A stretch of 34,570 bases of DNA from Catajapyx aquilonaris (GCA_000934665.2 JYFJ02004130.1:1-34570); one strand, 5' to 3'; counted from the stretch's first letter, positions 1,771 through 34,570 are shown. Translations and numbers: made by a program. Notes: generated by a model not told the origin, from the sequence alone.

Positions 1771-3683
1771 ATGGACTTAAATAGGACGACAAGAGATGTC
1801 CCGCGTGCGCGTGGTCGAAAACGGCTACGAGAAGAGAGAAATTGGAAGGAAAATGTCCGGAAGACACTCAAACCCAAAGGTAATATTAGGCCTCTCTGCC
1901 TCCGAACAAACATCGAATGGTCGGACGGAGTTCTTGGGAGAATATCCCACCCTCGTCCCTGGGTTGGACCCGGCATTGCAGTACAGCCGGGTCCAGCCCT
2001 CCTCTCCCCCACCCTGCTCACCCCTCTACCTTGCAATCCCACACCTTCCTCTCCTACCCCCGGCTGCCAAGGCTAGAGCTGGGTAACCCTTCCAAACCAA
2101 CCAACCAACAAACCAATGAACAAACAGTGCAGCATAAGAGAGTTGGTTTGTGCATGCGTGAATAATATAGACACACTGACACTATAAATGCGCAACTCTC
2201 AGGTCAGGTTTACGTCCCCAAAAGAGCCTCGAAAAACACCTGTAGTTGCTAGGACACTCCAGGAACTGCCAATGTGTCGGTGTCATTGCTCCTAGAAATT
2301 TTCACTTGAAGAACGAGGAGCAGTACTACTGCAACGTTTCAATGACATTGGCGACCATGTGAAACAAAACGTCTACCTACAGGGATGCTTGCAGTTACAT
2401 GAGGTAGGTAGGCCTACACTGCAATTGAGAATGAGAAGGTCATGCTTCTGGTACTGCAAAAAAAATAATGCTGTTGTATCCAAGATAACTTCCTGTGACT
2501 ATAGTCTGAAATATTTTTCATTACCTATATATCTTTAAAGGTGAAACAGAGGCGGAAGCGGGATGTCCCTGAGGAAAAAAGAAGACAGCCCAAGACGTGC
2601 TCATACAAGTACATTGTTACTGTCAACAACATATCCACCACAGTGTGCAAGAAGTCATTTTGTGCACTTCATTGTATCACGGATGCACGCGTACGCAAGA
2701 AGGTACAAGGTGGTGAGGCACACACAGATAAGAGAGGATCAAAAGTACCACCAAATAAGACATCTTCTGACATGTTAGAAAGGGTGACACAACACATCTC
2801 TAGCTTTAAAGCACGTGAGTCACATTATTCCAGAGCCAAGGCAACTAACAAGCGGTATTTAGACGCGAAACTGAACATTTCAAAAATGCACAGCATGTAT
2901 AATGCAGAAAACTGTGGATTCAAGTGTAGCTACCGCTTCTACCGTCATGTATTCAATCATGAATTTAACATCAAATTTGGGTTTCCTCGAAGCGACATAT
3001 GTGCCACTTGTGAAAAGTTGGCAGTTGATATTCGTGACACAGAGAGGACAATCACGTCAACATCAAATGCTAAAGTTAAGTATATGATGCAAAAGCCCAT
3101 TTGGGAGAAGTGACAAAACTGCTTGACATATACATCACAGGAAAGGAGAGGCGTTTTATACCACACGTAGAGAACTTCGTGACAAAGCAAAACTTGATAA
3201 CACATACTGTGTTATTGCTATGGATTTTCAAAAAAACCTGCCACTGCCAGTAACTAATGTTAGTGTGGAATATTACAAGAGGCAGTTATGACTTAATGTC
3301 TTCAACATCCAAGACATGGGAAATGATAAAGCTATCATGTACACATGGGCAGAACACTACACTGGAAAGGGTCCTGACCAAGTCATATCATGCTCAGAAA
3401 ATTATATTTTAGAGAAAGTGGGTGAAAATCCAGACATGACACATGTAGTCATTTTTGCCGACAACTGTGCTGCTGCACATAATAAGAACATGTACTTTTT
3501 TGGTTTCCTGCATTCTATTGTAAATAGGCTGAAACTACATTCTGCAACTGTTCATTACCCTATTCCTGGGCACAGTCGTCTACCTTGCGATGCAGACTTT
3601 GCCCTTGTGGAAAAAAGGCGGCGAAAGATAGATAAAGTCTACACCGCCGAAGATTGGATAGAGGTCATTGAAGAATCTAGGCA
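1771..3683 (+). pseudogene. Decayed, intron-containing Sola1-like DDD transposase
   Basis: Motifs RKRLREERNWKENVRK..G-Q-V-Y, VCKKSFCALH, HISSFKARESHYSR, FGFPRSDICATC, MDFQKNLPLP..YYKRQL, YTWAE..GPDQVISC, FADNC..HNKN and GHSRLPCDADF..E match remembered Sola1-type transposases. Putative introns are 1880-2202 (phase 1) and 2404-2540 (phase 0). There are in-frame stops and frameshifts near 2240-2295, ~3110 and ~3290. A palindromic insertion at ~3684 truncates it. Confidence 0.75.
1913..2117 (+). mobile_element. Short retroposon with (CCAA)n tail, copy 2, more 5'-truncated, inside the transposase intron
   Basis: Near-identical to the reverse complement of ~340-550. Direct repeat GAACAAACA at 1904-1912 and 2118-2126. 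Confidence 0.75.
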
Positions 3684-4498
3684 AATGTTGCTAGCTAGAC
3701 CATCTCGGATTTTGCTGAAAATAATCACAATTGTACACACCTATGCCATAACACTGCATCTCAAGTTTCAGCCAAATTTCTAAATACCGTTGGGAGGGAA
3801 AAAATCGTGAAACTTTGGAAATTGGGACTTTTTTTGGATAATTTTGTTCGGTTGTTGGAAGTGGTCAAAACCCAATCAACGTATACATCAAATGAGATGA
3901 AAGAGAGAGGAACAAGGAAAATGTGGCTATATAATTTGTTTTTACGAAAATGCACCCAGAAAAACCTGTGGAGCATTCCATCGGTCACATGCTCAGCACC
4001 ATGTCCAAGTATTTAGACCCCAATAATAAATTAGTGATGTATTTTTGTTTAAGAGCGGCCATATTTGGTGACAGGAGTTGTTACCCGCACAAGATTTAAT
4101 ATGTTCAGATTCAATTCTGGGTCATGCATGGCTCGCCAGAACATAATGGATATATGTTTTGCCGAATTACCATTAATTTTGATGGAGCAAAATTCTTGGA
4201 CATGTGACTGATGCACACACGTTTTTCTGGTTACATTTCAGAGGAAAACAAATAATTCCATGCGCGCATTCTCCTGGTATTTCTCTTTCATTTGATGTAC
4301 TGTATATGTAGATTGGGTTTTGACCACTTCCACTAACCGAAAATAATTATCCAAAGGGCCCCATTTTCAAAGTTTCGCGATTTTTTCTCTCCCAATGGTA
4401 CTTAGAAATTTGGCTGAAACTTGATAGGCAGTGTTGTGGCATAGCTGTGTACAGCTGTGATTATTTCCAGCGAAGGTCGAGATGGTCTAGCAACATTT
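3684..4498. mobile_element. Foldback/MITE-like element with long imperfect inverted arms
   Basis: ~3684-3960 is the reverse complement of ~4250-4498. Example: AAATGTTGCTAG..CAAGTTTCAGCCAAATTTCTAA versus TTAGAAATTTGGCTGAAACTTG..CTAGCAACATTT. Confidence 0.75.
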
Positions 4499-6602: not shown

Positions 6603-6608
<6 letters not shown>

Positions 6609-6692
<84 letters not shown>

Positions 6693-6950
6693 GATACCTC
6701 CTGGATAAGCCTCCTTGGGATTTTTAGGGGATCATCTTTTAATTGACCGACTTTAATCATTGCCTTTGATGTGATGGATTTTGATTGCGGGAGGAAACGG
6801 GAGAACCCCGAGAAAACCCACGCGAACACGGAGAGAACCCATCGAAACTCTATCCAAATAAGTATCCTCTGTCCGATCCGGGGATCGTACTCGGGACCTT
6901 AGAGGTGGAGGGCTGCGGCGCTAACCACTCCGCCACTGTGTCGCCCTCGA
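6609..6950 (-). mobile_element. tRNA-derived SINE with V-domain-like core and (TTA)n tail, copy 1
   Basis: On the minus strand: A box TGGCGGAGTGG, B-box-like GAGTACGATCC and core GCGTGGGTTTTCTCGGGGTTCTCCCGTTTCCTCCC. (AAT)n tract at 6605-6690. TSD AATTATGTAATA at 6597-6608 and 6951-6962. A second copy lies at 32161-32420. Confidence 0.9.
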
Positions 6951-8340: not shown

Positions 8341-11300
8341 TTAAATAGACACTGGAGATCGTGAAGGGGCAATCCGTCGACGTGTGCCTGTGCCTGTTCC
8401 TAAGAACACGTTGAAATCATTCTTGATGATCTGAGGCATATCCGCCTTTCGTCTACGATGTCCATACATGGCCTGTACCAAATCAACATACATCATTATT
8501 AAATTGAGGTTAAACACCAATGGATTGTAAACTCACCCATATCTGTTCCACAATAAGAAAAAAAGTGCTGAGAACGAGTCCCGTACATAGAAAGATATAG
8601 AGGAAAAGTACCTCCCCAAAGGAGGCAGAAATGGCTTTGTCTCTGGTACATCTCTTCAGCTGGGGAAGGAACCTTTTCCTCATTTCGTGCACCAGACCGG
8701 ATTCCCTCAACCTCAGGATTCTGAAGAGAGAATTCAGGAACGCTTTACCGGCGACAGGAATAGTTCTGGCTGTCAAGTCAGTATGAATAAGTTTCATTCA
8801 CAGAAAAAATATAGGCTACCAGATTTCCAGTAAATAAAAATTAACAAATTTGAAGAGCAGTCTCAAAAATTTAGTGATTCATCAATTTACCATTTTAAGC
8901 CAGTGCAGTAGTGGACTTACGCAAAATTGAGCATATTTCGATAAGGCCAGTTCTTTTTAATGGCAAATGCCAACCCTCCCGGCAAGTAGTTTCCAGGCAG
9001 TTCGATTATGGAGCAACTCAGGTCAGTGGGAAGCTGCTGAAGATAGTATCGGACCCCGTCTTTGACGCCCATAAACACGTAGTTGTCACCAAGAGCTTTC
9101 TGTACTCCTTCCGAGTACGACGACACCAGATTATCCGGACTTCTGCTGACTATCCTGTCCCACAGCTCCATCAACCAATAACATTCGGATGCTGGGTCTG
9201 TTTCTCCTCGGCACAGGCTCTGCCCAAAAATGGTTACAAAATCATACTCACGAGTAAGGGTTATTATGTAATCTGTTCTAAATAATAATGTAGCAATGAA
9301 AAAGTAGGTTCTCAAATAAATTATGTCAATAACGATTTCCAATAGATTGTTCTATGACACAACACAGAGCACAAAAATATGTTATGGTCCACTAAGCTTT
9401 TAGTTCCAATAATAACTGTTAATAACACCTGCATTATGCTCTGAATCTACATAAGGATATACCTCCATGGCAAGATTGGCCAGGTCTCCTCGAATGGGAC
9501 CTGCCTTCCACTCCTTGCTTTTATGCACCAGTCCTTCAAGATCACGAAAAGGCCAGGCAGGTTTCAGCGCTACGGCTAGATGAGAGGTCAGAGTAGCGGA
9601 GTAGCAGTTGAAAATAATGAGGAAGGCAACTGCTCCCAGCCAAAATAGTCCCCGACCTAACAGAGACTCAGGCAATGTGGCGGAACCTGAAGAATATTAA
9701 TTATGACACTGTTATGTAACCACATCATGCCGAAGAAACACCTATAGCAATTAGACGCATACCTGTTTGACAGAATGCTGCAATCACACTGATATAGCTG
9801 TCAGCAACTGTAAGGGGAGGCTCCTTATCATTGGGTTTCCTTCTTCTTCTCTCAACTAGCCATATAGTAGCCCCGATGCTTACGAACAGAAGAAGAGTCA
9901 TCAAGTATACCACGGGCGATAACGGATTCACGTAGAACCACCATTTAGTCTCAAACAGTCCTTGTGTTCGCATGTACATGCGACGGCTGAAAGATGATAG
10001 AAATTACAAGTAGTTTGACACTATACTGATGCGCCATAGTGTAATACCTTGTAAAAATAATTGATTGGCTGAAATCAATGGCGTCGAGTCTGTCGGTCGT
10101 GACGGACACTTCGCTGGATGTGATGTCGGCTTCCCCACGGTTCAGCATACCAATCATGCCAGTCCAGCTGCCGTTCACCATATTTCCGTAGGCGTATCCC
10201 TCCAGAATGGTTATGTTGTACCTGAATTAAAACATAGCACATTTCAGATTTGAAAGGCAGAAATTAATGAGCAAGCAAGCATACCTGAAGTTCAGCTCGT
10301 AAGCAATGAGCTCGAAGAGACTGGAGAACATCCCTCCAGAAATGTTATATCCGTTACTGGTATTCGCGTATTCCCCGTAAAATGGAGCTACCTGCGAGAA
10401 CATGTAGTTGAAAAGGAGTGCCTATTCACTATTCGAACTGACTCATTGTAATGGAGAGTGTGGAAGATTATCACTAGTGATTAAGCAGCCATCACAATCC
10501 AAAAGTTCTAAACTGGATCGTTGTCTTGAAGAGGACAACTGGGGTACGATTGTGCATTATCAGGCAATGTTGCATGCCTGTCCTCGAAGATGCCCTTGGA
10601 CTCACTCCTTTCGCTAACAGATACCTGATGATCCCATGATGAGCTCTGTTAGCCACCTCCACAAAATGCAGCATACTCTGAAGCGACTGATTTATTTATA
10701 AACCCGATGAATGTGAGTACAGTATTATACTGTCATATATACTGCTTGCGACATTTTGTGATGCGGAAGAAGTGAAAATCGAAATGATAGTGTGAGCCGT
10801 GCGAGTAAGAAAAGGTAGGCCTTGAGTGACGTCACCGGCTGGTGGGCAATGGAGAAAAGGCGTGTCCCCAGCTAGTGACCTCACCCAAGGGCTACCACTT
10901 CTTACTTACATGTCTCGCATTCTATCACTTCGATTTGCACGTCTGCCGCATCGGAAAATGTCGCTAGCAGTATGACGGAATTAATGTCCAGCACTGTATA
11001 TACATGGTAAGAAGGGGCCAGTTAGTAACGTTATATCAGAGTCTCCTCCGTTTCTCCTATTCTTCCTCACTCTCCCATATAGCCTACATGGTGACACTTG
11101 CATTACCTGGATTCCCACCGCTTTAACCATCGCTCCTTGCAAGTCTTTTCTTCTGATCAGCTTATTTTGAATTTGAGACAGATCCCAGCCGGCAGACTGG
11201 TTCCAGAATCCTCGTGGGGAGAAGCTTATGTTGCACATGTCGCACACTCGGTACATGTCGTCAAGCTGCGTGTATTGGTGCATTAAAGTGGGTTCACATC

Positions 11301-12370
11301 ATTGTAGGATTACAACATAAACGACCCAAAGGCAATGGGCATTGACTCCCGTGTGAACCCAGCTAAATTACACACAGATATATGCTTGAAAATGGTTCAT
11401 CAATTACTGATACCTGAATTCCTTCAAACCATCCCACAGACGTGGCGGAATAAAGGTTGCTGTCTACATAGGCCGGGATGTTGTTCAGCAGCGTCTGGTT
11501 CAGATTCATACCTTCCTGGACTACCAAAAACCATCTCATGGTGTTACCCAGAGCAATCACTTCTTCGTCACTTCCCTGCTCAGAACAACAACATACGTAA
11601 TTAAGTGACAGTACACAGTAGTAGGCTACTATATTTCTTACAAAAAAAATTATTAATCCTGTGGAATGCTCAAACACACTTCGAGTTGATATACCTGTAT
11701 TTATACATTTTTGCAGCAGGTTTTTAGCACAAAATCAGCCCCAAAAAACTATCATTACATTAAGTATGCCTGACCTTCAAAGGAAGTTGGTAGTGCGGCC
11801 TGTCCTGATTGGTGAGGACCTGCAGCGCTTCATTAGGGTTTCCAAAACAAATAAAGTTCCCCCTGGAAGCGAATCTGGAGAGATCAGTGATGACTTTTGG
11901 AATATCTTGAATCCTGCGCAAGATGGTCAGGTAGATTAGCCTGGCCGAGAGCTCCCTGCTTAGGCATCCCCTCATGATGCATCTCCATGGATATTCACCT
12001 GCATACACCCAAACATTCATTTAGTGTGGGTCATTATAATGTACCATTCCGAGGCAGAGAAGACAACGATGTCATGGCATGTGAATGTGTGGATGTTTTG
12101 ACTCATGCGTAAACATTGTTGTCTTCTTTCACCCGGTCAAATATATTCCGACCTACCTGGTTCACCAGTGACAAGAATCAAGTGCTTCATCTGGAATCTG
12201 ACGACCATGTCCACTATAAAGCGAAACATGGGCATGCAGTAATGGTGCATGAGTGCATCTTCAGAATGCTGCTGCTGCGCAGCACATCTTTTATCAAGCT
12301 GACCAATGCAGAGTCGAAAGCAACATGTGAGCACCAAGAGGCACATGCGAAGAAAGCTCCACAGGTCCAT
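8341..12370 (-). CDS. Ionotropic receptor (IR; variant ionotropic glutamate receptor family chemoreceptor), ~700 aa, 11 exons
   Basis: Phase-consistent GT-AG exons: 12370-12157, 11998-11775, 11575-11414, 11265-11107, 10391-10285, 10221-10048, 9986-9763, 9686-9463, 9219-8921, 8720-8537, 8472-8341 (2103 nt). Features: signal-peptide-like start MDLWSFLRMCLLVLTCC; LDDMYRV..G.W..RRKDLQG; S1 NGSWTGMIGMLNRGEADI..TDRLDAIDFS; M1; pore AFCQTG; M2 YSATLTSHL; S2 LAFAIKKNWPYRNMLNFAILRLRESGL; M3. The N-terminal exons are less certain than the core. Confidence 0.9.
10732..10976. mobile_element. MITE in IR intron 4
   Basis: Inverted arms TACTGCTTGCGACATTTTGTGATGCGG / CCGCATCGGAAAATGTCGCTAGCAGTA. Confidence 0.7.
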
Positions 12371-13509
12371 CCAGGTAGCTTCAAACAGCGTCTTTGCTCC
12401 TTTTAAAAAGCCTTGTGTATTGGCTCTCACGAGCTTTAGTGGCCTTCAGATGTTTTTCCTCCCTTTGTTATTGCAAAATCTTAAGGACACTGAGGAGCAA
12501 GATAAATCGTCCACTGTCTCAATCCTGTCAGCGGGATTTGCCACATAACAGATACCTTCGTGCGTCCACAGCTTATTGATCCTGCATTTTGTCGATGATC
12601 AACAATGTTGCACAACAATAATTATCTTGCCCATTACACGAATTGCACGAACTACCTGTCTTCCTGGCTGAATCCCCGCAAATGCACTTATCAAAATAGC
12701 AGGATCTCCCACAGCACCCTGGTACATACTCTTTTGTCCAAACACTTAACCCTGGACAATGAACACGTGGTGTACAATGTGACGTGTTCTGACCAAGTGC
12801 ATTCAGTAATAGAGGGCAATATATCATTTTCTTCATGTATAAAAGCGATGACTACAAGTGAGTTATTGCAAATCTGACAATCGACATTAATATGCAATAC
12901 TTACAGTACTTATTGCAGGTCCTAAAATCGATTGCAACAAAATTACGAGCAAGACCTATAAGCTTAGTTATATTAGGCCATTTCCTTCCATCTGCAGTGT
13001 CACGTCCATTGACCTTCTCCGATCCTCTGCGGACCTACTGTAAATAGCATGCAAAAAAAGTTCGTATTTGCCCACGTCAATTAACTGCATGGACCGTGTG
13101 CGAGCTTGAAACATAAATTATAGCCTTAGTTGCGTGGTACTTGTTGTCGCATGCAAGATAAGATGACCCCACCGCCAATATTTCATGGCTGGCCTATTGT
13201 AATTACAATGACGGGGGGCTTCAGTATAGTCTAGTAGAGACAGCTGCTACATTAGTAATGTGCTCTGGAACGTTTAGAGGTCATACGAGGGTCTCCACAT
13301 ATTGTATCCATTGATGTATACAGTTGCAGTTAATGTTTCGGGGAATAAAAGACAAACATGAACTGTGAATATTTCATATCTTTATTATCCCCAGGTTACT
13401 TTGGGTAGTAAATACTGTTTATTTATACTGGATTGTATATTCTAGATATACATACTACAGGCCACCTGGGAAATAATTTCGTCGATAGGTGATAATGTCT
13501 GCAGAAATT

Positions 13510-16613: not shown

Positions 16614-19519
16614 CTAATCAGCGGGAGGGGCATCATCGGCATTCCCTTCCCCATCAATTGGAGCTGCTTCTTCTCCGTCACCTTCCGGAGGTGCACCTTC
16701 TTTCTCTTCTTCTTCTTCAGCAGGTGCTTCTTCCTCCTCAGCCGGAGCCTCCTCCGACTCTTCCTCAGCAGGGGCTTCCTCTTCAGCGGGAGCTTCTTCT
16801 TCATCTGGGGCTTCTTCGTCTGCTGGTGCTTCTTCTTCAGCTGGAGCTTCCTCCTCCTCTGCAGCAGCGTCTTCGCCTTCAGGTGCTTCTTCCTCAGGTG
16901 CCTCTTCCCCTTCCTCGGGTGCAGCTTCTTCTTCTGGTGCCGCTTCCTCCTCCTCGGGTGCAGCCTCTTCTTCAGCAGGTGCTTCCTCTTCCTCAGCACC
17001 TCCTTCCTCAGGCGCTTCTTCAGATTCCTCTGCAGGAGCTTCTTCTGCAGGAGTCTCTTCCGTCTCCTGCTCTTCCTCTTCCTCGGGAGGAGGAGGTGCT
17101 GATGGAAGGTGATCTTTTGGTGCCATGTTTCCGTTTCCCTCTTCTTCTGCTAGAAAAGAATGCATAGAAGGCCTGTAGCTTCCTGCTGGCTACCTACCGT
17201 CAGTCGTGACCAGGCACTAATGAGGTCTTTGCGGTATGCGGCAGAACCTACGGAGGACACCACAGCAGTGCGCAGACGTTGCCAAAGAAACACGAGGCGA
17301 TATCCAATCAGAAAAATGTATTGTCGTTTTATGGTTGTCACTGGCTTGTTGGCCCATCGATTACCTATTAAACTACTGCACAATATCGCTGCAGTATACA
17401 GTGCCGGTAGGCGTTACTTGAAATGCAATGAAAGTCGTTCGCATGCGGGTTGGAACCAAAGAAGATCGGACATGCACTAGGAACTGTCTCGTCATGGTAT
17501 ATTGCACTAGTATATAGCATTTCCTGGAAATTCCCTTAATGGCCATTACTGCAGAAACTATTGAGTCATGATGTTCCACGATTCTGCATTATAGTAACCA
17601 TGGATGAGCAAATAAAGTACATGATTAAGCAACCAGGAAGCCTGTTTCTCAATTCAGGTCATTTCTTTGAAACAACGGAGTTGTTGGGTGATGCCTGTCA
17701 GTGATATTTTTTTTTAAAAAAAAAACTTGTAGCGTGCAAGAGAAGCAAACATAAAAAGAAGTATAATCTATCGCGCAAGTTTGATGAAATAGAGGGCAAT
17801 AATAGTGGGTCATGGAACTCAATCGCGCACGACATTTATTTCAAGCATTTCTCCAAGAAATATGCAAAGAGATGCCAAATTATGATGTGTACGGTACACA
17901 GCGCCAGTGCACGGGACTTGTAAACACGAATCTAAGCAGCCTAGGTAAGGATCATGACACGTGATGGACACGAATCCTATTAATAGTGCATAGCTGGCGC
18001 GCGACAGGTAGAGTTCGTGACCCCTTATATTCCGGAGCTCCCTAGATGGTTTGCTAGGCCGATCGATTTCAATGGTCATCGCCCACAAGCTTCTACGTAT
18101 ACAACAGCAATGACAACAACATTTAGGTAGTTTTGTGTCACTAAGGTATTTTCTACGCACGCAATGTGGTCAAAGTGGCATCATTTTGGCGATAGTTATG
18201 GTGGAATTGGCCCGTTCGCATATTTTTTGAAATACAGTAATGTTTTACGGAGTATTGGACACCTGTACTAACAGCTGCTCTTTTCCACGCCCTTAGAAAG
18301 AGTCCATAAGGCGCAATAGGGTATTGAAAAATTAGCAACCTGTACTATGTGGGCTGGTCTGACTACTCGCTCGGTTGGAAATGAGTGTGTCATAAATAAT
18401 GCGAGGGACTCTGGCTGACCATCACACGCAGAGTCCAGTCAATAGCGGAGGCTTATTTGGGCACTTATCGATAGTTCATACAGGGTGGAGCAAAAGCACA
18501 GAAGGCTGGTTCTCTAGCATACACACTCGATATGTTTCTTGCACACAAGTGTTTGCTGACATCTGCATTTTAGAGCAACTCAGATGCATTTGTGTCAAAT
18601 TTTTAACAAACTTGCAATGTTGTGTTAAACTACTCATTAATTGAGTAGGATATGAATAAATTTGACTCTACAATACGGTATTGACCAATTCCACTGAAAA
18701 CACGTGAAATGCTTTATAAAGTGACACATTGCTAATGCACCACCCTGTATACCCCACTGTCGTCATGGCGCACAAGCCTTTTTCCCGGAGGCCCACGTAA
18801 TACCTTCTCACTGTTCTCGGAAAGGCCTTAGTTACTTCCACGTCTCTAGCGTGACAACGTGTAAGTTTCACGACATGTCGCCTGTGGGTCCATTTCACCC
18901 GTATCCTGAATCTAAGGTGTCGTAACATTTATCAAATCGGTTCAGGGCTACTTGAATCATTACTACAATGCATTGGTGTCACACTTTCTTGGAATCATAT
19001 ATGGCCCACAATAGTATGTCAAATGGGTGAATAACCAAAATTGCTAGTTTCGAGATGATGATAGTTTATATTATGCATGCTCAATGAGCTTTAGATAGGC
19101 TTTGACGTCGATACAAGAAAGATATTTCCTACCAGCTCAGTGCGTCATTGATCCTTTCAAGGAAACCCATATACGATCAAACTGATATATCCCTGGCCTG
19201 GATGTTGATTTTTTTTTTTTTTTTTGGGGGGGGGGGGGCTACACTGTGATGAATCCGCACCTGAATTTGGCTGCTCCTCCGGAAAGGCCTGAAGTTTGGC
19301 GTTGGGGGCGATAATATTGGCAAAGTGCTGATGGTTATCCGGAAAAGGATTCCCGTACAGTTCGTCCGGTCCAGGTACCCTCTCCTGTTGAAGCAATCTT
19401 CTCTTACTCCTAGGACTTAAACTTTGACGAAGATGCTGCTGAGGACCAGCCTGTCCTCTTGTCCCCTCCGATAAAGAACCGTTGAGGTGCAATGCAGGAG
19501 CACTGCTCGCACAGCCCAT
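16614..19519 (-). CDS. Uncharacterised, probably lipid-anchored acidic disordered protein (MGCASS leader plus Glu/Ala/Pro-rich repeat tail), ~264 aa
   Basis: Exon 1 is 19519-19261 (MGCASSAPALH..RQSLSPRSKRRLLQ..QPNS; donor G|GTGCGG, phase 1). It joins exon 2 at 17149-16614 (acceptor TTCTTTTCTAG|, phase 1; AEEEGNG..(EEEAPA)n..DAPPAD*). The repeat units differ at synonymous positions, consistent with coding. Additional internal exons cannot be excluded. Confidence 0.7.
18481..18747. mobile_element. Degenerate Tc1/mariner-type MITE in an intron
   Basis: TA|CAGGGTGG ... CCACCCTG|TA, with partial further complementarity. Confidence 0.45.
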
Positions 19520-23128: not shown

Positions 23129-24031
23129 TACTGTTACATGAAAAATCGCGGGTGACATGAATATATCATTGGTGGCATCAGATTTAGAAGTATATTTTCC
23201 AGATAGGGACTCATAAACTGAGACATAAAGCACTTTTTGGATGTAAGTTACTCACAAGAAAACATTACATTTGTAGTGCTTGTGTTGAAAGGGCGTAGGG
23301 TTGTGAACTTGTGATTATAGTATGATCATTCCTCTACGCAATCGCACACTATAATCTCAAGAGTGGCAAGTCACCAAAAGTTTTTGGAAGCAGTAAATGA
23401 ATTTTTAACATTTCTGACAATGCATGTGCCAGTAGGCAATAGATTGACACCTCTCTAGCAGTGACTCATAGCTAATAATTTTTTAACTGATAAAGGTTAA
23501 TCAGATGTGACAAAAAATATATATTTAAAAATATCATCCACCAAGAGGAAATGAAAGTTCGGCAATTGGCATATTCCTGCTGTGCAGGATTCCCTACCAA
23601 CACGTTTTACTGTATAAATATATACGTACACACATGATGAGTACAAAGGTGACAATTATCGTACCAGTACCGGAAATGTGAATAATGGTTTCAGGTAGTG
23701 ATGCCTTGATAATTCAAGTTTTATTGAGAAACATGAAGAAAGAAATAGTCATTTTCATTATAAAGGCAGGTCTGATTAGTTCACTGAAAAATAAACCTTG
23801 ATACCGGTAGTGTACTTGAAAGTCCCATCCTACAAAAAAACATAAAAAATCCATCTGACCTAATTAAACTGGCTATGTAACACATTCCTCACTTTTTTTA
23901 AAAAATCACCAGCTAGCCCATGAAAACAATATTTCAAGATCATAATAGAAAACGTCACCCAAAGTGTTTGGAAACTGTAATATATTATGCAAAAAAAAAA
24001 AAAATCAAAGCACAAGTCTTGCTGTTTCATA

Positions 24032-27000
24032 CTAAAGAAAATACATGGGGAAGTTTTTAGACAGGCGCTGATGGACAGCTGTTGCCGATTCCAGAGGTTT
24101 CAGATCCTCTCTGTTGTAGGGCACTCCATGAGCCATGGCACTGGAAAGGACAAGTCTGAATTTAGTCCACATAATAATTATTATGCACAGGGCACAACAC
24201 AGTGTAATTTTTGCATCATTTCCACAATCGATGCTGAGAGAAGGGCAGTTGGTATGAAGAAATATTTTCAGCATTTTTACAAACACGCTGTAACCCCTCT
24301 AAAAGTAAGAACGTGGAAGTTTCGCATTGTAGACTTGTAGTGCAGCCCAGCCATTACCTCAGAGGCGAATATGTAAAGGGGGCGAAAGCTCCGGGAGGCA
24401 TAAAAGTATGGGCCACGACTCCTGATCCAACCCTTGTATGAGCACAATTTATTCAAAAACGATTACGCTTGCTGACTTTAAATTTGAAAATTGATCAGGT
24501 CAGCCAAAGAGAGTGCAGTGAGAGAATAAAAAAGCCATTTCTATTTAATTCTAAAAGTTCAGAGATAGGGAGGTTTTGAAGATATTACAGTATTATATCG
24601 GAAACAGACCATCATGGTAATCTCTGAAAACATGTTCACTGGGCTACACTGCCGTCCCATAGAGAAACACCGTAACTCAAAAACCAGTGAGGGTGAAAGT
24701 CGTGTGCATGCCCTGCACTAATCCCCCCTGACTCAGGAAGGATTAGTGCACGACCAAGAAGGTAATGTGTAAATAACTGACCACTTTATGAGTCTCAACC
24801 TCCTTTTGGTAGCCTTCACTGCATAGTAGTAAGGGGCAGTGTTGGCTTGCACATAACCTCCTCTTTTAGCGAAATTGACTGGAAAGCACAAGTGGATGCC
24901 TATTTGTACAATGTCATCCACAGAGAAGTCACTGTCGTCCAAAAGAATAAAATAATCCACTGGTTTCAATAGGCCCTGGAAGGAGAAAATCAGGAATTAG
25001 CATACCAGGTTATATCATTATCATTCTACATTGACCATGAAAGAAATAACATAGACTGACTTTCAGGGAACACATACACATTCACATGAAAAAAGTTCAT
25101 GAAACAGTGAGTGTCGTGGTGGTGGGGCTCGCATTTTTCCCGTGACCCCAAGAGCTGTGCCGGTGGTACATTTGTCTGCTGGCATGGCCACCCAATTTGA
25201 ACATGCCTTTGGGATAGGAAACAGACTAAGAGAGATACCACTCTGTCCTCCCTTCTTTTTACTCGTCTTTTCTCTCTCCATCTGTCCCACCTTTGTGTCT
25301 TCTCTCTCTCTCCCTCTCTCCCTCCTAATAAACCTAAACCAAACCATGAAACATTGTGGGGTTGGCCACTACTCTTTGAGTGTACACCTTTTTGTGGTTA
25401 TCCCTAATTACATGCACTCTTTGTTAGGAAACACATGAGAATTCTTGTGATCAGGTGTGATTACATGACAGTAGGTGAATGGATAAGTATTTACATTTCC
25501 TGGCCGGTAGGGCACATGGAATCTAGTCGTCCTTGTGGGGGTCAAAGTGTAATTCACTACTGTTCCTCTTAATCCATGGTTTATAAGCTGCATCTCATTT
25601 TTCTTGACTTGTTGCCAGGAAGGGACATCAGTGTTAGCCACCATGAAAGTGATGGCTGGCTTGTAGTCAGGGTGGAGGGATGTGCAGGCACCACGTATTG
25701 CTAGAAGCCAGTTGTGCAGTATATCGTAGAACTGATTGTCAGTCAGTTCTTCCATCAAGACTATTACTCGGCATGGCTGCTTTGTAGTACTCCTGAAAAG
25801 CAGTTCATTAAATACATCTTTATTCTTCATTTAAGCACAGCTTTATTTAGGAGCAGTTATTAATTTTATTATGATACTTGTTTGGTTCATGCTGGGCATC
25901 TTAAGCTCAGTACAATATTTAACAGTTTAAATCTTACTTAGACCATACCTGAAAAACATATGAAGCATGTTCTTCACAATTTCCTGAAGGTCTCTGATAT
26001 TTTCTTCCCCACTAGGCTGCAGCCAAGTGGTTGTGGTGAATCTGGTGGCTATCAAGTCTGTGGAGGCGCATATGGCTGCCACTGACGGGAAGGTTGGCGA
26101 CTCCAGCGTATTGGTGTGTGCACTCAGAATGATGGTTGGCAACTCGGGCCTAAATATCACACGATCTACAGCAAACTGGGCGCCATATGACAGGTTTGTC
26201 ATACTGGATCCTGCCATCATGGCACTTATATCGTCAGACAGCTGAGACAGAAACTGTACTCGCCTTGCCATGACATTCTTTTTGCTCACACACTTGGTCA
26301 GCACTCCCACTTTTGTGTCAGCTGCAAGCTTGACAGATGATACCATGTCCTTGACACACATAACTACCAGCACAATTTGCAGATCACACATCTCTGCCAG
26401 GTCATTCTCCAGGTTTTGGAAGAATTGTATGGTGGTAGGTTGGGGTAGTTCCAGCCCATGGCCAACACAACTGATTGAACGCAGTTGTTGGATGAATCTC
26501 CTGGGGAAGTTATGAAATATGAGTAATTGACCTCTTAATAATTCATTCACAAAGTAATTGACTCTGACAGGTGAGTGGAAAGTAAGGATGGGTTCAATCT
26601 TGACAAGTACGAAAAATGACTCATTACTCACTCTACGTCATTGTTGCTGATCTCTCCCACGATATATACACCCCAGCTGTTAACAGTTAGCTTATGGTCA
26701 GTTGACATGTCCAAGTAGTCATTTCGAAGTCCACCTGCAGTCATATCAGAGCCCTGCACGCATTCAGTGGCAAGCTCCTCACCTTCTCTATATACAATCT
26801 GTAAGCCTGGAAAAAATGAAATGTGCATGAACATTTATATGTAATGTAATGGTACACAACTATCAAAATTACTAATTATTAATCCAGGATGTATCCTTAA
26901 TATAATGTATAATATTAATAACATTAATCCAGCAAGGGAATGATGGAAGTCAGGATCACCTGAAGCTTTGGAGTCAACCGAGGATCCGGAATCAACCTGC

Positions 27001-27068
27001 TGTGTGCGGGATGTGGCAGGCTCAGCAGGCTGAGAAGCTGATGGGAGAGTGGACATTATCGCGCCCAT
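24032..27068 (-). CDS. Divergent Argonaute-derived protein with L2 end, MID and PIWI only (no N/PAZ seen), predicted slicer-dead, ~478 aa, 6 coding exons
   Basis: Phase-consistent GT-AG exons: 27068-26960, 26806-26632, 26500-25949, 25792-25495, 24975-24782, 24140-24032 (1437 nt, no stops). The translation is collinear with AGO-clade motifs: IVY..LATECVQGSDM, SWGVY, ERFIQQLRSIS, LQIVLVV, VKLAADTKVGVLTKCVSKKNV, PSVAAICASTD, EENIRDL, STTKQPCRVI, LLAIRGACTSLHPDYKPAITF, KPVDYFILLDDSDFSVDDI, APYYYA and C-terminal VHQ..PMYFL*. Confidence 0.85.
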
Positions 27069-28184
27069 TTCGGACGGACGCCGGACGGGAGGTCCACACA
27101 GGGAGCAGCGTAGCACTGTCAATGGGTAAGTACCGATTAAGTACACAACAGTCAACAGAGAATGTCTTATCTGTGTGTCCAAGTCACTATACCAAAGAGA
27201 TGGCCTTTCACTGCTCTTTCCAATCCCTGGTGTAGTCTCCACGTGATTGCCTCCTATCGACTATATAACCTAACCATATGCAGTAACCAGCCTAACACAA
27301 ATTAATTCCCCCCACCAGCCACCAGAGGATGCATCCAGGGGTTCAAATAAGATTAATAATTTTTTGCACTTTTAAAGAGAATTTCAGTTGCTAGGAAGAG
27401 TGTGTTGGATAGGACTCGAAAATATGAAGGCTAATTAGTATGATTAGTATAATAAGGTATAGTGTGATATTAGTTATTTGCAGGACTTAGCAGCCTTAGA
27501 ATAACTGTTATACATTTTTAAAAAAACTGCTGGCGATGTGAAATCCATAGGCAATGTTCTCCACAGATTCTCCAGATATCTACGGATGAACCGAAATGAT
27601 AATTATGAGTTATTGATAAGAATTAATTATTGATTGAGAAAAACAGTAAATGCGGTTAGAAGAACTAGTCACAAGTGCACATTAATTACAATTACCTGAA
27701 GGGTCTCCATGTTGTTTAAAATTATAGAAATGCAACATACAGTAGGCTACATTACCTGCACAAAGTTTTGCATCAATCTAGCCCATCATCTTCACTTATT
27801 ATTGTCATTATTGCTTTTGTTAAAAACCTGGATGCTGAAGCGAACAATCATTAACTTAATTCATTCTGTCCTAACTCTCCTCTGCATTCATCAAAATGGT
27901 TATGTGCAAGTTCCAGACACATGTTTCAGTTACATCAAATAATGCTGACCAACCCCCGGACACTACCCCTATAATCTTATCTTATCGCCTGAGTTTTGTA
28001 TGAGGTGCTCACTTGAGACCGCCATGAGACCGCCTTTCACTGACATTATGTGGCGACCCTACCGGACCGCGCTGAACTTAGGTAGAAGAGAATAAGCGAT
28101 TCGAGTCGATGCCATCGATCGAAGCACCTATCCGCACGTATAACAATATCGAAGCCTGCCAATGCGCTAATTCAAATCTAGTCA

Positions 28185-28260
28185 GGGAGGCGGAGTGGTG
28201 CTGCGGTAACGTATGCGCCCACGGATGTTAAGGTCCCGGGTTCGATCCCAGCCCGGGGAC
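28185..28260 (+). repeat. tRNA-like SINE head fragment
   Basis: A-box-like TGGTGCTGCGG and B box GGTTCGATCCC at tRNA spacing. There is no convincing acceptor stem. Confidence 0.55.
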
Positions 28261-29248
28261 ACCCCCTTCAACTCGTGCAAAGAGCAAAGAGCTTAATAAT
28301 ACTAGGAAGAGTGGAAAAAACAGCTGGAAGCATAGCAACCGTGTCTCCAATCGACTGACCTGCCACCTGGCGAGTCGACAACCAAACTCGATACTGTATT
28401 GTACAATACGGTAGATCGAGGCAGTGCCGGAAATATGGCAATAAAAGCCCCAGAGGTTGGAAATAAGTCATAAGTACTAGTATACTCCCGTAAAATTGCC
28501 GACAAAACACGTTGCAGAAGACCTGTGAATAAAAAACCATCACGAAAAGCAAATATTATTTGCCAGAAGTTTATTGATTTCCACTACAATTCCACACTCT
28601 GCTCTATACAATACACACCAAGGTACACACTGATAATGATGCTGAACATGGTCATATGACAGGAAGATATACCCCCCGCTGCTATGTCCATCTTGTCGTG
28701 GCGGGACGGGCTTGTTCTTCTTCCCGTGAACTCCAGAACCGTGGAGGGCCCTTTGGTAACGAAAAGAATGTGATCCGAGACCCTGTGCGCGAACAGTAGT
28801 AGCACGCGGCACCCGAACGTCTACGCCACACTATGCCGGCAAAGGAACTTGTTCAATTTCGAAATTCGAACGTGATTTCTAAGCAACGAGGTGATTATTT
28901 GTATTGTTAGGTGCAGAGTGGCCAGCTGCGCAGAATATCAGTTTCGGGTCCAATATTAGTTCGTTCCCCGTACGACCTCATATTGGTCAGTTTTTAGATT
29001 TATAACTCGTAATTATGTGCCTCTTGATATTAAATCAACACCGTGTATTGAAATTCCTCTCGACAGCACTCGACGGTGGCGCCGCGTAGTGGCCGACAAC
29101 CAAACACGTTGACCAAACAACTGGCCAAAAAGTGGCGACGCTTGGAAACCGTTTTTTCCACTCTTCCTAGTATTAAGCTCTTTGGCCCGGGCATTTCAAA
29201 TGAATAGCCTCCAAATGTACCATCTAATATATATAAAGCCCCACGCCG

Positions 29249-29281
29249 AGGATATAGGATATAGGATATAGGATATAGGAT
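29249..29281. repeat. (GGATATA)n tandem repeat inside a probable TE remnant
   Basis: Read directly. Preceded at ~29223 by TCTAATATATATAAAG, which resembles a Helitron-type 5' end. Confidence 0.7.
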
Positions 29282-29786
29282 GGAAAAGATCTCCCACTTC
29301 CCGACGTCGTAGAGGACTGGGAATGGTCTTAAAAAATAGGTCCAAAAATTAGTTGGGAATCGAAAAATCCTCAAAACTGCAAATTTCCCAGCCGTTTTCG
29401 AGCTATGGCCCAAAAACCAAATTTTTAATTCCCGACCTTGCCCAGAAGTTCGTTACAGCCCGAGAACAATAGCCCTATCCATCACCCGCTGACAGGTCCA
29501 TTCACTGTAATCCCACCAAGCCTTTTTCATGATACGCCACCTGGGGCGCATTCTAATACTCCACAACTTTGTGGACCGTGACGTCACGGGTTCTGTAAAC
29601 GGATGGATTTCTGTAACCGGATGGATTAGGCGGAACACGGGCACCGCGCCGAAGGCGCGCACGTGGGGCGCAGCCCCACGGGGGGGGTCCGGGGGGGCGG
29701 AGCCCCACCGGCTCGCAAAGCGAGTCATCAAATAAAGGTCCGTGCGATATGCCCCCAGGTGCGGGGGCGAAAGTACATTACCCCTG

Positions 29787-29787
<1 letters not shown>

Positions 29788-29853
<66 letters not shown>
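29788..29853. repeat. (ATT)n microsatellite
   Basis: Read directly from the sequence. Confidence 0.95.
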
Positions 29854-29855
<2 letters not shown>

Positions 29856-29914
29856 AATCTAGTCTATTTTCCAGCAAGGCCATGACCATGGCCATGACAC
29901 TTCAAACCTAAAAC

Positions 29915-30060
29915 TTACACAACTCTTACCTGACATATAAACCCACTCTGAATATTCAGTATTCTATTCTCTGACGTGTGACCCTCTTAACTCTTTTTAT
30001 CAAAACTTTAGCATACACTTTCCCTGGTACACTTAACAGACTAATGCTACGATAATTCTT
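29915..30060 (-). pseudogene. Fragment of a non-LTR (RTE-like) reverse transcriptase
   Basis: The minus strand translates as KNYRSISLLSVPGKVYAKVLIKRV, followed by a disrupted SGF..GKSC. This is the start of the RT domain. Confidence 0.8.
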
Positions 30061-30066
30061 ACATAA

Positions 30067-30107
30067 TGATGATGATGATGATGATCATCATCATCATCAT
30101 CATCATC
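30067..30107. repeat. Head-to-head (TGA)n(TCA)n microsatellite palindrome
   Basis: Read directly from the sequence. Confidence 0.9.
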
Positions 30108-31596
30108 ACAAATTCACTACCTCGTTATGGTAGCGTGTCCTACGTGTCCCCACCTTTGTCATGATAGCCACCTTGTGAATGGCAGTGTCGACCTTGTTGA
30201 CATTATGGTGTTACAACAATGTGCGCGCCATCTTCTCTGGTTGAATAGGAGATACGATAAAAGCGACATCTCAGAACCAACAGTATCGTTACTCCTGTGA
30301 TTTTGCCAGCATGTAGGTTGCAGCAGATACGACATTATGATATCAAATTGCACCAAAATTGGAGTTACGACAATACAGCACGGAGCCCTCGAATATTAGA
30401 GTTGCAGACTTTTTACACCCCTGCAAGTTAATAGTTATACGTAACCGTAGCAATTAACCCCCGTACCCATACCCATTATTACCCGTACTCCAGCACATAC
30501 CTATATGAGACGTGAGTACACCGCCAGTGAACGCGAGTGGCCGCTTCTCTGCAGGTGGCACCAACCCTTGGACAGATGACACTTGCTCTCTCCTCTCGGA
30601 TGGTTGTGATTAACTGGAAATATGCTCCGATGTGGATGGAATGGGTATGACGGCCATGGTGATGCTGCACAACCCAATCGACCGCAACCGACACAGACCG
30701 ACACGCGAAAAGCCGGAAACTGACGTGTTTGTCATAGTTACCGTATCCGGGTAAGTGAGATTTATTTATTTTGTCAAACGGGAATTGAATTAATATCCGT
30801 ATGTGCCCTATCCATGTACTTGTCGTCACATGAAAGGCACAGGCGACTCCGGAACCGCATAATAAATCAGCTGACTACCTGGACGAAAATGGCAACTCTG
30901 TAATGAGCTTGATTTGAATTGTTCAGGGCGGAAAAATTCAATATGTGCCACACCCATTTGCTGGTCATTTAAAAATAATTGCGCAGGTAGTTCAAAGACA
31001 CTGCAGAGCATTATTGTGGCACGCAAACAATCGGAATGCCAACAGAAAGATGGTCATCTGCGGTTGCACCGGTCGCGGTATGGAAAACGGCGGGTTTTCA
31101 CTCGATATACCGCGAGAAGTGTTGCACCACCTACGGTTTTTCTAAAACGGCACGTTCTCCCTCCCATTTACCGCCCGATCCATCTACCCGCCTGCAGCGC
31201 AAGTTGCTTCCGCGGGTTTATAGGTGTTGTCAATATGGTTGCGGACTGGTGCTAGGGATTTCGTGTAGCCTACTGTGTGACACCGTGTGGCAACCCTGTC
31301 ACATGGTTGCCGTAGATACTAGACGACTACCCATACTTCCATGACGTCACGGGTGCTGCGATCCAATCAGCGCTCTCCTAAATTTTTGCCCGCTTACGTC
31401 TCTCATGGGCAGTAGTAAAGTTAATAATAATGTTAATAATAATTAGTCCAAAATCAACAAGTCAAAACCACGTAACTCGAATAATACTAATTTTTCAGGA
31501 GAGCAAAAAAACTGAATAAAAAATTACACTTGAATTGAGATTTAATCGGATTTAATCTTTTAACCTGGCCATATATAATATATAAATAATAATATA

Positions 31597-32158
31597 CAGG
31601 GTGTTTATTGTAACTCTGCAAAGACTTTCAGGGGTAATAGAGGGGACCAAGACAAGTATTTTTGACATAGGAATCTGTGTCCGGAAACGCCATCTAGAGG
31701 GGGTTCATAGACAAGGAACGGGTGCGCTCAGACGCTTCATGCGGGAGGAGCTAGGTGAGGTGACTGTTTTGTTGATAGATAGCGCTCGGATAGTAAACAC
31801 TAATTGGATGTGCCATAACCTGGCAACAGCAGAGTCATCTAGCAACTAAAGTCCGCCACCTAGGAGACGCGCGGATAGTCAACAGCGGTTCTGTTGTTGC
31901 CAAGTTATGGCGTATCGCGTTGTTGTTTACTTACTACGACGCGATACGCCATAACCTGGCAACAACTGCGCGCCACCTATCAACAAAACAGTCCGCTCTC
32001 CTAGCGCCTCTCGCCTGACGCGTCTGAGCGCACCAGTTCCTTGTCTATGAACCCCCTCTAGATGGCGTTTCCGGACACGGGTTCCTATGTCAAAAATACT
32101 TGCATTGGTCCCCTCTATTACCCCTGAAAGTCTTTGCAGAGTTACAATAAACACCCTG
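31597..32158. mobile_element. Tc1/mariner-type foldback MITE with ~190-bp inverted arms
   Basis: TA|CAGGGTGTTTATTGTAACTCTGCAAAG ... CTTTGCAGAGTTACAATAAACACCCTG|TA. The arms produce the mirror-image ORFs 31601+ and 32154-. Confidence 0.9.
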
Positions 32159-32160
32159 TA

Positions 32161-32420
32161 TAATGGATACCCCGTGATAGGCCCCTTGGGCCTCTTAGGG
32201 GATCATCTTTTGAATACCCGACTTTAATCATTTGCCTGTAATGTGATGGATTTTGATAGTGGGAGGAAACGGGATAACCCCGAGAAAACCCACGCGAACA
32301 CGGAGAGAACCCATCGAAACTCTATCCACATAAGTATATCCTCCGTCCGACCCGGGGATCGAACTCGGGACCTTAGAGGTGGAAGGCTGCGGCGCTAACC
32401 ACTCGGCCACCGTGTCGCCC
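32161..32420 (-). mobile_element. tRNA-derived V-domain-like SINE, copy 2, with its tail split by the MITE
   Basis: Highly similar to 6690-6947. A box TGGCCGAGTGG and B box GAGTTCGATCC. TSD ACCTGGCCATAT at 31563-31574 and 32421-32432. Confidence 0.9.
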
Positions 32421-32734
32421 ACCTGGCCATATCTACGCTCCTATTGGGCAAAAAATTACGCCGTTTTGATGGCAGATGCAGCGCAAAATGCCCGATTTTC
32501 ATAATCAAAAAGCTGAAATCGGCCGAAAAGCGAGTTACGCGGTTTTGACTCCACGGCGACATGGCAGTACCAATAATGTAAAGATATCGTTATGTAAAAC
32601 AGCAGCAGCAGTTTCAAGTCTAAAATGTCAACCAACAAAAGCATAGTCAACTATGCCTTAAAATATATATTATCATTAGATAATATAGGCCTACATTTGG
32701 AAAAAGATTAAGATGATGTTGGCTCTGAAAACTC

Positions 32735-33506
32735 TAAGTGAGTAAAGTGCCACTTTGCAGGCTTGTTTCATTTCCTTTCCTGTCAGATGATGCCTCAGCC
32801 ATTTTATTTTTTGTTTCATTTTCCCTCTTTGATTCTTTGTTAATGATGCATCCTCATGTTCAAGTAGTATCGAACAGCAAAAGCCATAATGTCCTCTTTA
32901 TGATATAGCATGGAAAGCTGAGGACAACTGTGCTCATTACCTCTTCTACTGTCCTGTCATATGCATTGGCCTTCATACAGTACTCGCAAAGCATGTCTCT
33001 ACAAACCTGATGAATTCAAAGAACTGCCTATTCGGATGAATCAACCCTCCACGGGTCTTCATGTTCACTAGTTTCGCTGACACTTGCTGCGAAAATCTGA
33101 CTGGTGATCTCAAAGCTGATTTGCATTTTGCCCACTTTGTGTGCTTGACGATTTGCTTGACCAAATATCCCGCAACATAATATAATGCACAGTCAATTAC
33201 AGGTGCACAATTGTAATCATGTTCCAATGTGTCAGTGAACTCCCACTCCGTTGTCTCGATAAGTTCTGTGAATTTTTCATTCAATGCTTCAACAGCTGAC
33301 GGTTCAGGAGTGCCCGAGAATATTTCCTGTAAATCACCCAGTTCATATAGAGGTTCTGTTGGTGTGTCATCGTTTGCACTGCAGTTGCCATATTTTGGCG
33401 GTTTAAGAAAACTGTAAAAAGACAAAAGCTTGTAATGCTGCAGAAATGTTGGTGTTGCTGGATGCTGCTAGCCCCCTGCTGCCAGCCTGATTACACCAAA
33501 GAAACA
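32735..33506 (-). pseudogene. Decayed P-element/THAP9-like transposase, C-terminal exon
   Basis: After the acceptor TTTCAG| at 33506 it reads CFFGVIRLAAG (frameshift) HPATPTFLQHYKLLSFYSFLKPPKYGNC..ALYYVAGYL..KTRGGLIHP..HKEDI-like..YYLNMRMH, with several stops and frameshifts. Confidence 0.8.
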
Positions 33507-33898
33507 CTGAAACAGAAACATTAGCTCATCACTGGCAGTAAGTCCGAAGGGATTAAAAATACTGTGTCCGCCGAAGTCCGAAGCAATTAACAATATGGCC
33601 TCCACCACCACAGGGCGCAGGCCTAGAAAAAAAGCGAGCGAAGCGAGTGACTTTCTTGGCCTGCTTCATAGAAAAATTCGAGCGAAGCGAGAGTTTTTCT
33701 AGTAAATGCTTAATTACATAAAAAGTGTGAGATATTAGTTTACAAATTTATTATCATTTGGTGAACAGTGACAATATTACAAATTGTTTACACAAAGTCT
33801 CAACAATGGCATGGGAAGTAGCTATAGTACGTGACATTCTCAAATGTAAGGGCAGTACAAGGCCATCATATACTTGACAGAAACTTGATCCAGTTACA

Positions 33899-33960
33899 CA
33901 GTGGCGTAGGCAGGGGGGGGGCCCGGGGGGGCCGGGCCCCCCCCGAAATGTTGAGAAAAA
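33899..33960. mobile_element. hAT-like terminal sequence of a non-autonomous element (other end not identified)
   Basis: CAGTGGCGTAGGCAGGGGGGGGGCCCGGGGGGGCCGGGCCCCCCC resembles common hAT MITE ends. A similar CAGGGGCTGATTTAGGGGGGG occurs at ~34235. Confidence 0.45.
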
Positions 33961-34570
33961 TCAAGGGGGCCCCCGAATTTTCCGACGAGTTTTAGAAAAT
34001 TTTGAGGAAACCCACAAATCCATAATAGGCCTAACGTCTATAACCTATATTCTCTATTCTATAAGACGTAAGAAAGCGGGTTCGATCCAATCAATTCGAG
34101 GTCTTAGCTCGTATTATCTCACTGTCAGACTCTCGCAGTCGCAGTGTCAGTAATCAGTATGGCACAAAACAATGAAAATGAGAAATCATTACATTAATAC
34201 TGTAGTTAGCCTATACGTAATCATTACGTATTACCAGGGGCTGATTTAGGGGGGGCAAAAAGGAACAAAAGAAAAAAAAACGGGTGGAAAACTCGCAAAA
34301 ACCCTCGAGAACAGTGCAATTTTGCTGTCGTGACTCCAAATTTGGGGTCGCGAGGAAGGGTTGTGACCTTGAACCGAAAAAAGTTTCGCCTGCGGCGGGC
34401 CCTGATCGCCCCCCAGTAGTATAAAAAGGGGCGTTAAGAGACAATGGGTCATCAATCACTCGTTGACAGCTCACTTCCGGTCTAATCCATTGTTCTCGAA
34501 CACCTGCTTCCGGTCTGCTTTTTAATTGGAATGTAATTAGCATAATGAGAAACCGTGATTTTTCGTCACC

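Follow-up and report, generated by a model that had tools for sequence, protein, structure and literature searches.

A divergent, spliced AGO-clade gene of Catajapyx aquilonaris with a predicted loss of slicing and of the canonical guide 5'-phosphate pocket

A 34,570-nucleotide stretch of genomic DNA from Catajapyx aquilonaris (GCA_000934665.2, JYFJ02004130.1:1-34570; hereafter the window) carries on its minus strand a spliced gene for an AGO-clade Argonaute, in which both the catalytic tetrad and the pocket that would hold the 5' phosphate of a guide RNA are altered, while the core of the MID-PIWI fold appears to be kept. The explanation that we tentatively favour is that the gene is a lineage-specific, fast-evolved AGO-clade paralogue, of which the MID-PIWI half would have been kept by selection and would act neither by slicing nor through a canonically loaded guide. 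The surrounding DNA is eukaryotic, with about 42% G+C, dispersed repeats and genes split by introns, and scans of the window for tRNA genes and Rfam families found nothing.

The gene was read along the minus strand, and checked by script, as four exons separated by introns that are all of the GT-AG type and whose phases fit, giving a frame of 382 codons that ends in TAG. Exon A (25949..26500) encodes the C-terminal two thirds of the MID domain and the first part of PIWI, including the pocket positions (V/K/K/D/M), IILSAH at the position of D597 and SGEENI at that of E637 (human AGO2 numbering); it is preceded by the acceptor ccccag and followed by the donor gtatgg. Exon B (25495..25792; acceptor ttttcag, donor gtaaat), continuous in phase with exon A, covers the middle of PIWI. 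There, LMEEL stands at the RDG strand, where AGO2 has D669, LLAIRGAC..DYKPAITF is a well-kept stretch, and ANTDVPSW replaces the basic QKRHHTR. The C-terminal part of PIWI is encoded by exon C (24785..24975), with GLLKP at the GTSRP position and YYAV at that of H807; its acceptor is ttccag and its donor, gtggtc, is weak and phase-compatible. Exon D (24032..24140), the last, follows the acceptor tttccag in a phase compatible with exon C and ends in PMYFL, directly before the stop codon TAG at 24034-24032. Every acceptor consists of a pyrimidine tract and AG. A possible polyadenylation signal, AATAAA, lies 306 nucleotides past the stop on the same strand (23720..23725), found by pattern search as a consensus match only. 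A preliminary description of this DNA, made by eye, had placed a pseudo-Argonaute at 24782..26500; all the motifs that it quoted occur in frame on the minus strand, within the three exons inside 24785-26500, whereas the MYFL-stop tail falls outside that interval, in the fourth exon (24140-24032).

None of the usual marks of a pseudogene (premature stops, frameshifts or broken splice sites) was found. The 382 codons contain no internal stop, against 16 and 28 in the other two frames of the spliced sequence and 68 per 1317 codons in the introns. The G+C contents at codon positions 1, 2 and 3 are.50,.38 and.52, in comparison to.41 in the introns.

Past the end of exon B, its frame runs on without a stop for 28 codons into the following intron (25408-25494, minus strand). 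An intronic sequence, NVNTYPFTYCHVITPDHK, was paired by phmmer with the GTSRP..WDDN stretch of AGO2; the profile search did not reach into the intron and exon C fits the same stretch of AGO2 better, so that the pairing was treated as a chance match. As alternatives to chance, the open segment could be the trace of an older exon end or belong to an alternative, truncated isoform.

The relationship of the gene to Argonautes was examined by searches with single exons and with a profile. An exhaustive search of 1.84 billion representative sequences with exon A returned 66 proteins at E≤0.001, the best with 35% identity (E 6.5e-9) and none reaching 1e-10; the eight of these 66 that were viewed were ordinary Argonautes. 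A profile hidden Markov model of 849 positions, built from the 27 full-length AGOs among the 66 matches, aligned with exon A over positions 460-652 (100.9 bits, E 5.6e-30) and recognized exon B (29.0 bits, E 3e-08) and exon C (25.6 bits, E 3.3e-07). Exon D alone gave a weak match (E 0.022) to the final positions 831-848, where its PMYFL tail, the conserved hydrophobic C-terminus that in the AGO clade ends at the MID-PIWI interface, resembles the PMYFV end of the library protein P0007. The Pfam Piwi family was recognized in three exon pieces, with scores of 27.9, 25.3 and 18.1 bits that all miss the cut-off of 28.9, because the introns split the domain.

Against solved structures, phmmer placed human AGO2 first for both exon A (E 3.6e-10, among 31 sequences at E≤0.01) and exon B (E 4.4e-10, among 24 sequences), the best matches overall being human AGO2, AGO3, AGO1 and AGO4 and plant AGO10. 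Exon C alone found nothing in the PDB at E≤1; all six matches at E≤10 were Argonautes aligned at the corresponding place (E 1.1-1.3). Likewise, a protein language-model atlas set exon A among Piwi clusters (0.95). A word-indexed search of longer proteins for close relatives of exon A found none, and a scan of metagenome contigs gave 210 pattern matches, of which none was confirmed. As judged from its homology in MID and in PIWI, a domain of RNase H-like fold, and from its C-terminal tail, the gene is an AGO-clade homologue.

The catalytic tetrad DEDH, which defines slicers and not membership of the Argonaute family, was absent under every alignment. Alignment with human AGO2 chains by phmmer put a histidine (in IILSAH) at the position of D597, the second glutamate of SGEENI at that of E637 and the first glutamate of LMEEL at that of D669, such that RDG reads MEE. 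At the position of H807, MAFFT and hmmalign with the library matches gave valine (YYAV against YYAH), and phmmer against AGO1 gave a gap (E 1.1, not significant alone), so that no histidine was found under either alignment. Over all alignments the tetrad thus reads H (or gap), E, E, V (or gap), in agreement with the H-E-E-V of the preliminary description. Among the 66 matches, D597 is aspartate in 59 and D669 in 54, with seven gaps. A loss of slicing is well supported at this level, because the first catalytic aspartate is gone, the third position is a glutamate and the histidine is missing.

The pocket for the guide 5' phosphate is changed at four of its five named residues. We take K566 of human AGO2 to be one of its contacts. 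The residues Y529, K533, Q545 and K570 are described as holding an obligatory 5' phosphate and as conserved from archaeal to eukaryotic Argonautes (PMC4390867). In the computed alignments K533 remained lysine, Q545 became lysine, K566 aspartate and K570 methionine, and the Y529 position held valine (MAFFT, hmmalign) or a gap (phmmer), which reproduces the V/K/K/D/M read earlier by eye; neither DEDH nor a Y-K-Q-K pocket was restored by computation. Among the 66 matches, lysine occupies K533, K566 and K570 in 66/66, Y529 is tyrosine in 63/66 and Q545 is glutamine in 62/66. Matches that lack catalytic residues nevertheless keep both K566 and K570. The pocket is hence the unusual part of this gene and the slicer loss the ordinary part, since K566 and K570 are lysine in every match, including those with altered catalytic residues. 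The alignments support a loss of the canonical 5'-monophosphate pocket at the sequence level; moreover, canonical anchoring of a guide 5' phosphate appears unlikely, because the stacking tyrosine, the glutamine and two lysines are gone and one of the lysine positions is now an aspartate.

Two further RNA-contact motifs were altered. GTSRP reads GLLKP in the MAFFT alignment, as had been described. For the basic QKRHHTR stretch the reading depends on the alignment: phmmer set ANTDVPS against it, one residue off the NTDVPSW first reported, and MAFFT opened a gap and aligned KK with KR. The absence of KRHH holds under both.

We compared the divergence of the gene with that expected from decay. In a tree with the 27 full-length AGOs, its terminal branch was 2.0 substitutions per site long, whereas those of the AGOs had a median of 0.59 and reached at most 1.11. 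As 124 of the 3438 possible single-base changes of the coding sequence create a stop (0.049 per non-synonymous change), a wholly neutral branch should have produced 37 stops, and the probability of finding none is then 5.5e-17. That probability rises to 0.009 for a quarter of a neutral substitution per site and to 0.15 for 0.1; the open frame is compatible with only about 0.1-0.15 neutral substitutions per site.

Furthermore, the losses were unevenly distributed among residue classes. In columns conserved at ≥80% among the 27 AGOs, the gene retains the hydrophobic residue in 19 of 29 cases (and a hydrophobic residue of some kind in 26 of 29) and the glycine or proline in 11 of 14, as opposed to 13 of 33 polar residues (polar 13/33 against hydrophobic or Gly/Pro 30/43, Fisher P 0.011), with the losses concentrated in strongly conserved polar columns. 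These counts support the retention of a hydrophobic core that had been proposed from inspection; the terminal MYFL, proposed likewise, is present in exon D. Along the sequence, identity was about 0.8-1.1 of the canonical level over residues 41-85, 116-195 and 201-245, and fell to 0.25-0.5 of it in residues 71-120 (the helix with K566 and K570), 176-220 (the RDG strand), 231-300 (from QKRHHTR to GTSRP) and 301-335 (the stretch before YYAH). Simulated uniform decay produced such unevenness in 0.2% of 5000 runs (nominal P 0.002) and in 0.7% of 1000 (nominal P 0.007). When each of the 28 sequences was left out in turn, the gene had the highest unevenness score and, at columns conserved at ≥70%, the lowest retention (0.61, the others lying between 0.77 and 1.13), with a normal retention of 0.96 at weakly conserved columns; divergent canonical AGOs showed the opposite pattern between strong and weak columns. 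No uniform, class-blind loss of the kind expected of a pseudogene was found. These data support retention of the fold core, and, as far as its sequence can tell, the locus is unlike a pseudogene that has long been decaying. It is reasonably supported that most of the excess divergence arose under selection on the frame and the core, and targeted the RNA-contact and catalytic segments.

Homology begins at exon A, about two thirds of the MID domain together with PIWI. Since exon A starts in phase 2, it must be preceded by at least one further coding exon. The minus strand of 26600-34570 (about 8 kb) was screened for the N, L1, PAZ, L2 and first MID strands by tblastn with the 66 proteins, by Pfam on 78 frames, and by the full AGO profile with filters off and a sub-profile of the N-terminal MID (E up to 100); none of these searches detected such an exon. 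The N-PAZ exons may lie beyond the end of the window, be too diverged to detect, or be absent. At 26632..26806 (minus strand) lies a candidate upstream exon: its frame is open, its acceptor is a strong pyrimidine tract with AG, and its donor, GTGAGT, matches the consensus and suits the phase that exon A requires. An in-frame ATG lies upstream of it at 26834. A match of this frame to the first MID strands, made by eye, found no computational support, as neither the AGO profile, the MID sub-profile (E up to 100) nor Pfam matched it and the atlas gave no usable match; it stays a candidate only.

Other frames were seen on the same strand of this region. Directly upstream of the candidate exon, 26838-27260 is open for 141 codons and partly rich in serine, proline and alanine; it matched no Pfam family and no part of the AGO profile, and is not repeated in the window. 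A 164-codon frame at 32976-33467 is likewise without a Pfam match, and weak reverse-transcriptase-like fragments occur at 29959-30084 (E 0.024) and 32694-32897 (E 0.086). The fragments between 29959 and 33467 suggest that remnants of old mobile elements precede the Argonaute exons.

On the reading that we favour, at least the MID-PIWI half would be retained by selection as a spliced open reading frame. The H-E-E-V tetrad would preclude slicing, and with a V-K-K-D-M pocket the guide 5' phosphate would presumably not be anchored in the canonical manner. The protein would then most likely act through the regions at normal Argonaute conservation, namely the MID core, the outer face of PIWI and the C-terminal tail, probably as a scaffold or a competitor for Argonaute partners, with possibly a weak, non-specific RNA contact along the still basic channel. 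Partner binding of this kind is pointed to by the normal levels of conservation in the MID core, in the C-terminal tail and in the PIWI stretch of the tryptophan (Trp) pockets. At the key Trp-pocket residues of human AGO2, as named in 10.1101/2025.10.18.683247, the alignments show F653, R688, L694 and Y698 to be kept; because four of five does not exceed the overall retention, this is only a lead.

Several observations weigh against this reading. The fifth of these residues, K660 of Trp pocket 1, is replaced by glutamine. TNRC6 binding by human AGOs reportedly requires that the composite 5'-end site be formed (PMC9262622), which argues against a guide-free decoy for GW-type partners. The unevenness test is not perfectly calibrated and its P values are to be taken loosely, because P 0.002 was also obtained for P0013, a canonical control that deviated in the opposite direction. 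The gene may, moreover, be truncated, as no N, PAZ, L1, L2 or first MID exon was detected in 26600-34570. Finally, a clear loss of positive charge was expected of the MID-PIWI part and none was found: its net charge of +5 lies within the canonical range of +3 to +20, and the positions of K533 and, under both alignments, R812 are basic. Because of these basic features, non-canonical RNA binding is possible. The preliminary description had concluded that the protein neither slices nor binds a canonical 5'-phosphorylated small RNA; the alignments bear out the predicted loss of slicing and of the canonical pocket, whereas the further step to binding no small RNA at all, and to a scaffold or a decoy, is one that we infer, and the charge, the two basic positions and the precedent of the nematode WAGOs run counter to it.

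These same features would fit a non-slicing Argonaute that loads small RNAs with another 5' end chemistry or mode of anchoring, in the manner of the WAGOs, an explanation that we regard as rather unlikely. In addition to the net charge inside the canonical range, the basic K533 and R812 positions and the retained PMYF tail, the MID core around the pocket stands at 0.8-0.97 of canonical conservation, and WAGOs are reported to bind 5'-triphosphate RNA despite divergent residues at the pocket positions (10.1101/2022.08.08.502013). However, the change of two invariant lysines to aspartate and methionine, and of the stacking tyrosine to valine, removes positive charge where a triphosphate would need more, and in the phmmer alignment the basic QKRHHTR stretch is not retained.

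We give the same low probability to a dead or dying partial duplicate, in which the 3' half would have been separated from the N-PAZ exons (the repeat-rich upstream DNA being one possible cause) and would be recently inactivated and unexpressed. No Argonaute exon is detectable in the upstream stretch of about 8 kb, which holds weak reverse-transcriptase matches and internal repeats; there is no close relative among the 1.84 billion representatives (at best 35% identity, E 6.5e-9), and the donor of exon C is weak, all of which would suit such a duplicate. Long neutral drift would nevertheless be very unlikely to leave a frame of 382 codons open, its four acceptors intact and its three donors still GT, and neutral decay predicts an equal loss at strong and weak columns, in contrast to the observed retention of 0.61 and 0.96 and to the sparing of hydrophobic and Gly/Pro columns. 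The open frame and the class-specific loss therefore confine a reading by decay to a gene that died recently and had long functioned before, its catalytic and pocket residues having already changed in that time. A selected, non-slicing paralogue is for us the preferable account. Its strongest form, a guide-independent, Argonaute-fold animal protein that keeps the outer PIWI face with its F653, R688, L694 and Y698 equivalents and serves GW-type partners constitutively as a decoy or a scaffold, possibly consisting of MID-PIWI only from the ATG at 26834, strikes us as quite improbable.

Elsewhere in the window, exons of an ionotropic glutamate-receptor-like gene were seen on the minus strand at 9400-10226, probably extending over about 8900-12900, with Pfam Lig_chan-Glu_bd on 9951-10226 (E 3.4e-11) and a weak Lig_chan match on 9400-9696; the frame at 8917-9351 found no match in a word-indexed homologue search. 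A 191-residue open frame at 16614-17189 (minus strand) consists almost wholly of Glu/Ala/Pro repeats of the EEAPAEEE type, is internally repetitive and has no Pfam family; the repeat also keeps the remaining frames and the other strand free of stops. Transposon-like frames occur on the plus strand at 2505-3783, together with 3694-3970 and 4216-4491, with Pfam DUF7869 on 3292-3783 (E 1.4e-09) and a repeated segment of about 276 nucleotides nearby. Copies of short interspersed repeats lie at 6604-6946, 29787-29858 and 31970-32420, and also at 394-552 and 1918-2116; some of them end in long AAT/ATT-type microsatellites, translated fragments recur, and up to 20 internal self-matches were counted for two of the stretches, 6604-6946 and 29787-29858.

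The gene can be compared with several known Argonautes. Human AGO1 and AGO4 likewise have an AGO-clade MID-PIWI of the same fold and are described as having lost slicing through changes in or near the tetrad (PMC4174435). They keep the full 5'-phosphate pocket and load miRNAs, whereas four of the five pocket residues are changed here. The nematode WAGOs are also non-slicing and lineage-specific and are described as divergent at the positions of Y529, K533, Q545 and K570 (10.1101/2022.08.08.502013), a likeness drawn from that description. WAGOs are full-length PAZ-PIWI proteins that bind 22G RNAs, whereas the present gene showed no PAZ in the window. AGO1x, a C-terminally extended read-through form of human AGO1, has a disturbed composite 5'-end site and is reported to act as a competitor and not a silencer (PMC9262622), and is therefore a precedent for decoy-like behaviour. 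AGO1x, however, arises from a canonical gene as an isoform whose pocket is intact and whose C-terminus is blocked, whereas the present gene has a canonical tail and replaced pocket residues. Prokaryotic short Argonautes consist of MID and PIWI only and are catalytically inactive. If the locus truly lacks N and PAZ it would share with them a dead MID-PIWI state, although it is spliced and, by its best matches, belongs to the AGO clade. In a keyword search of the open-access literature for a described Argonaute without both tetrad and pocket, the remark on WAGOs was all that was found, and others may be in print.

Inactive Argonautes are common. The 5'-phosphate pocket, in contrast, is described as close to invariant from archaea to humans (PMC4390867). 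Genes such as this one are easily missed in annotation or labelled as ordinary Argonautes, in this case because the Pfam scores of single exons fall below threshold and no close relative exists in the searched libraries. A paralogue that is kept open by selection with its pocket replaced would, if this is what the gene proves to be, offer a natural test of guide-independent roles of the Argonaute fold, and likewise of whether that fold can anchor RNA in another way.

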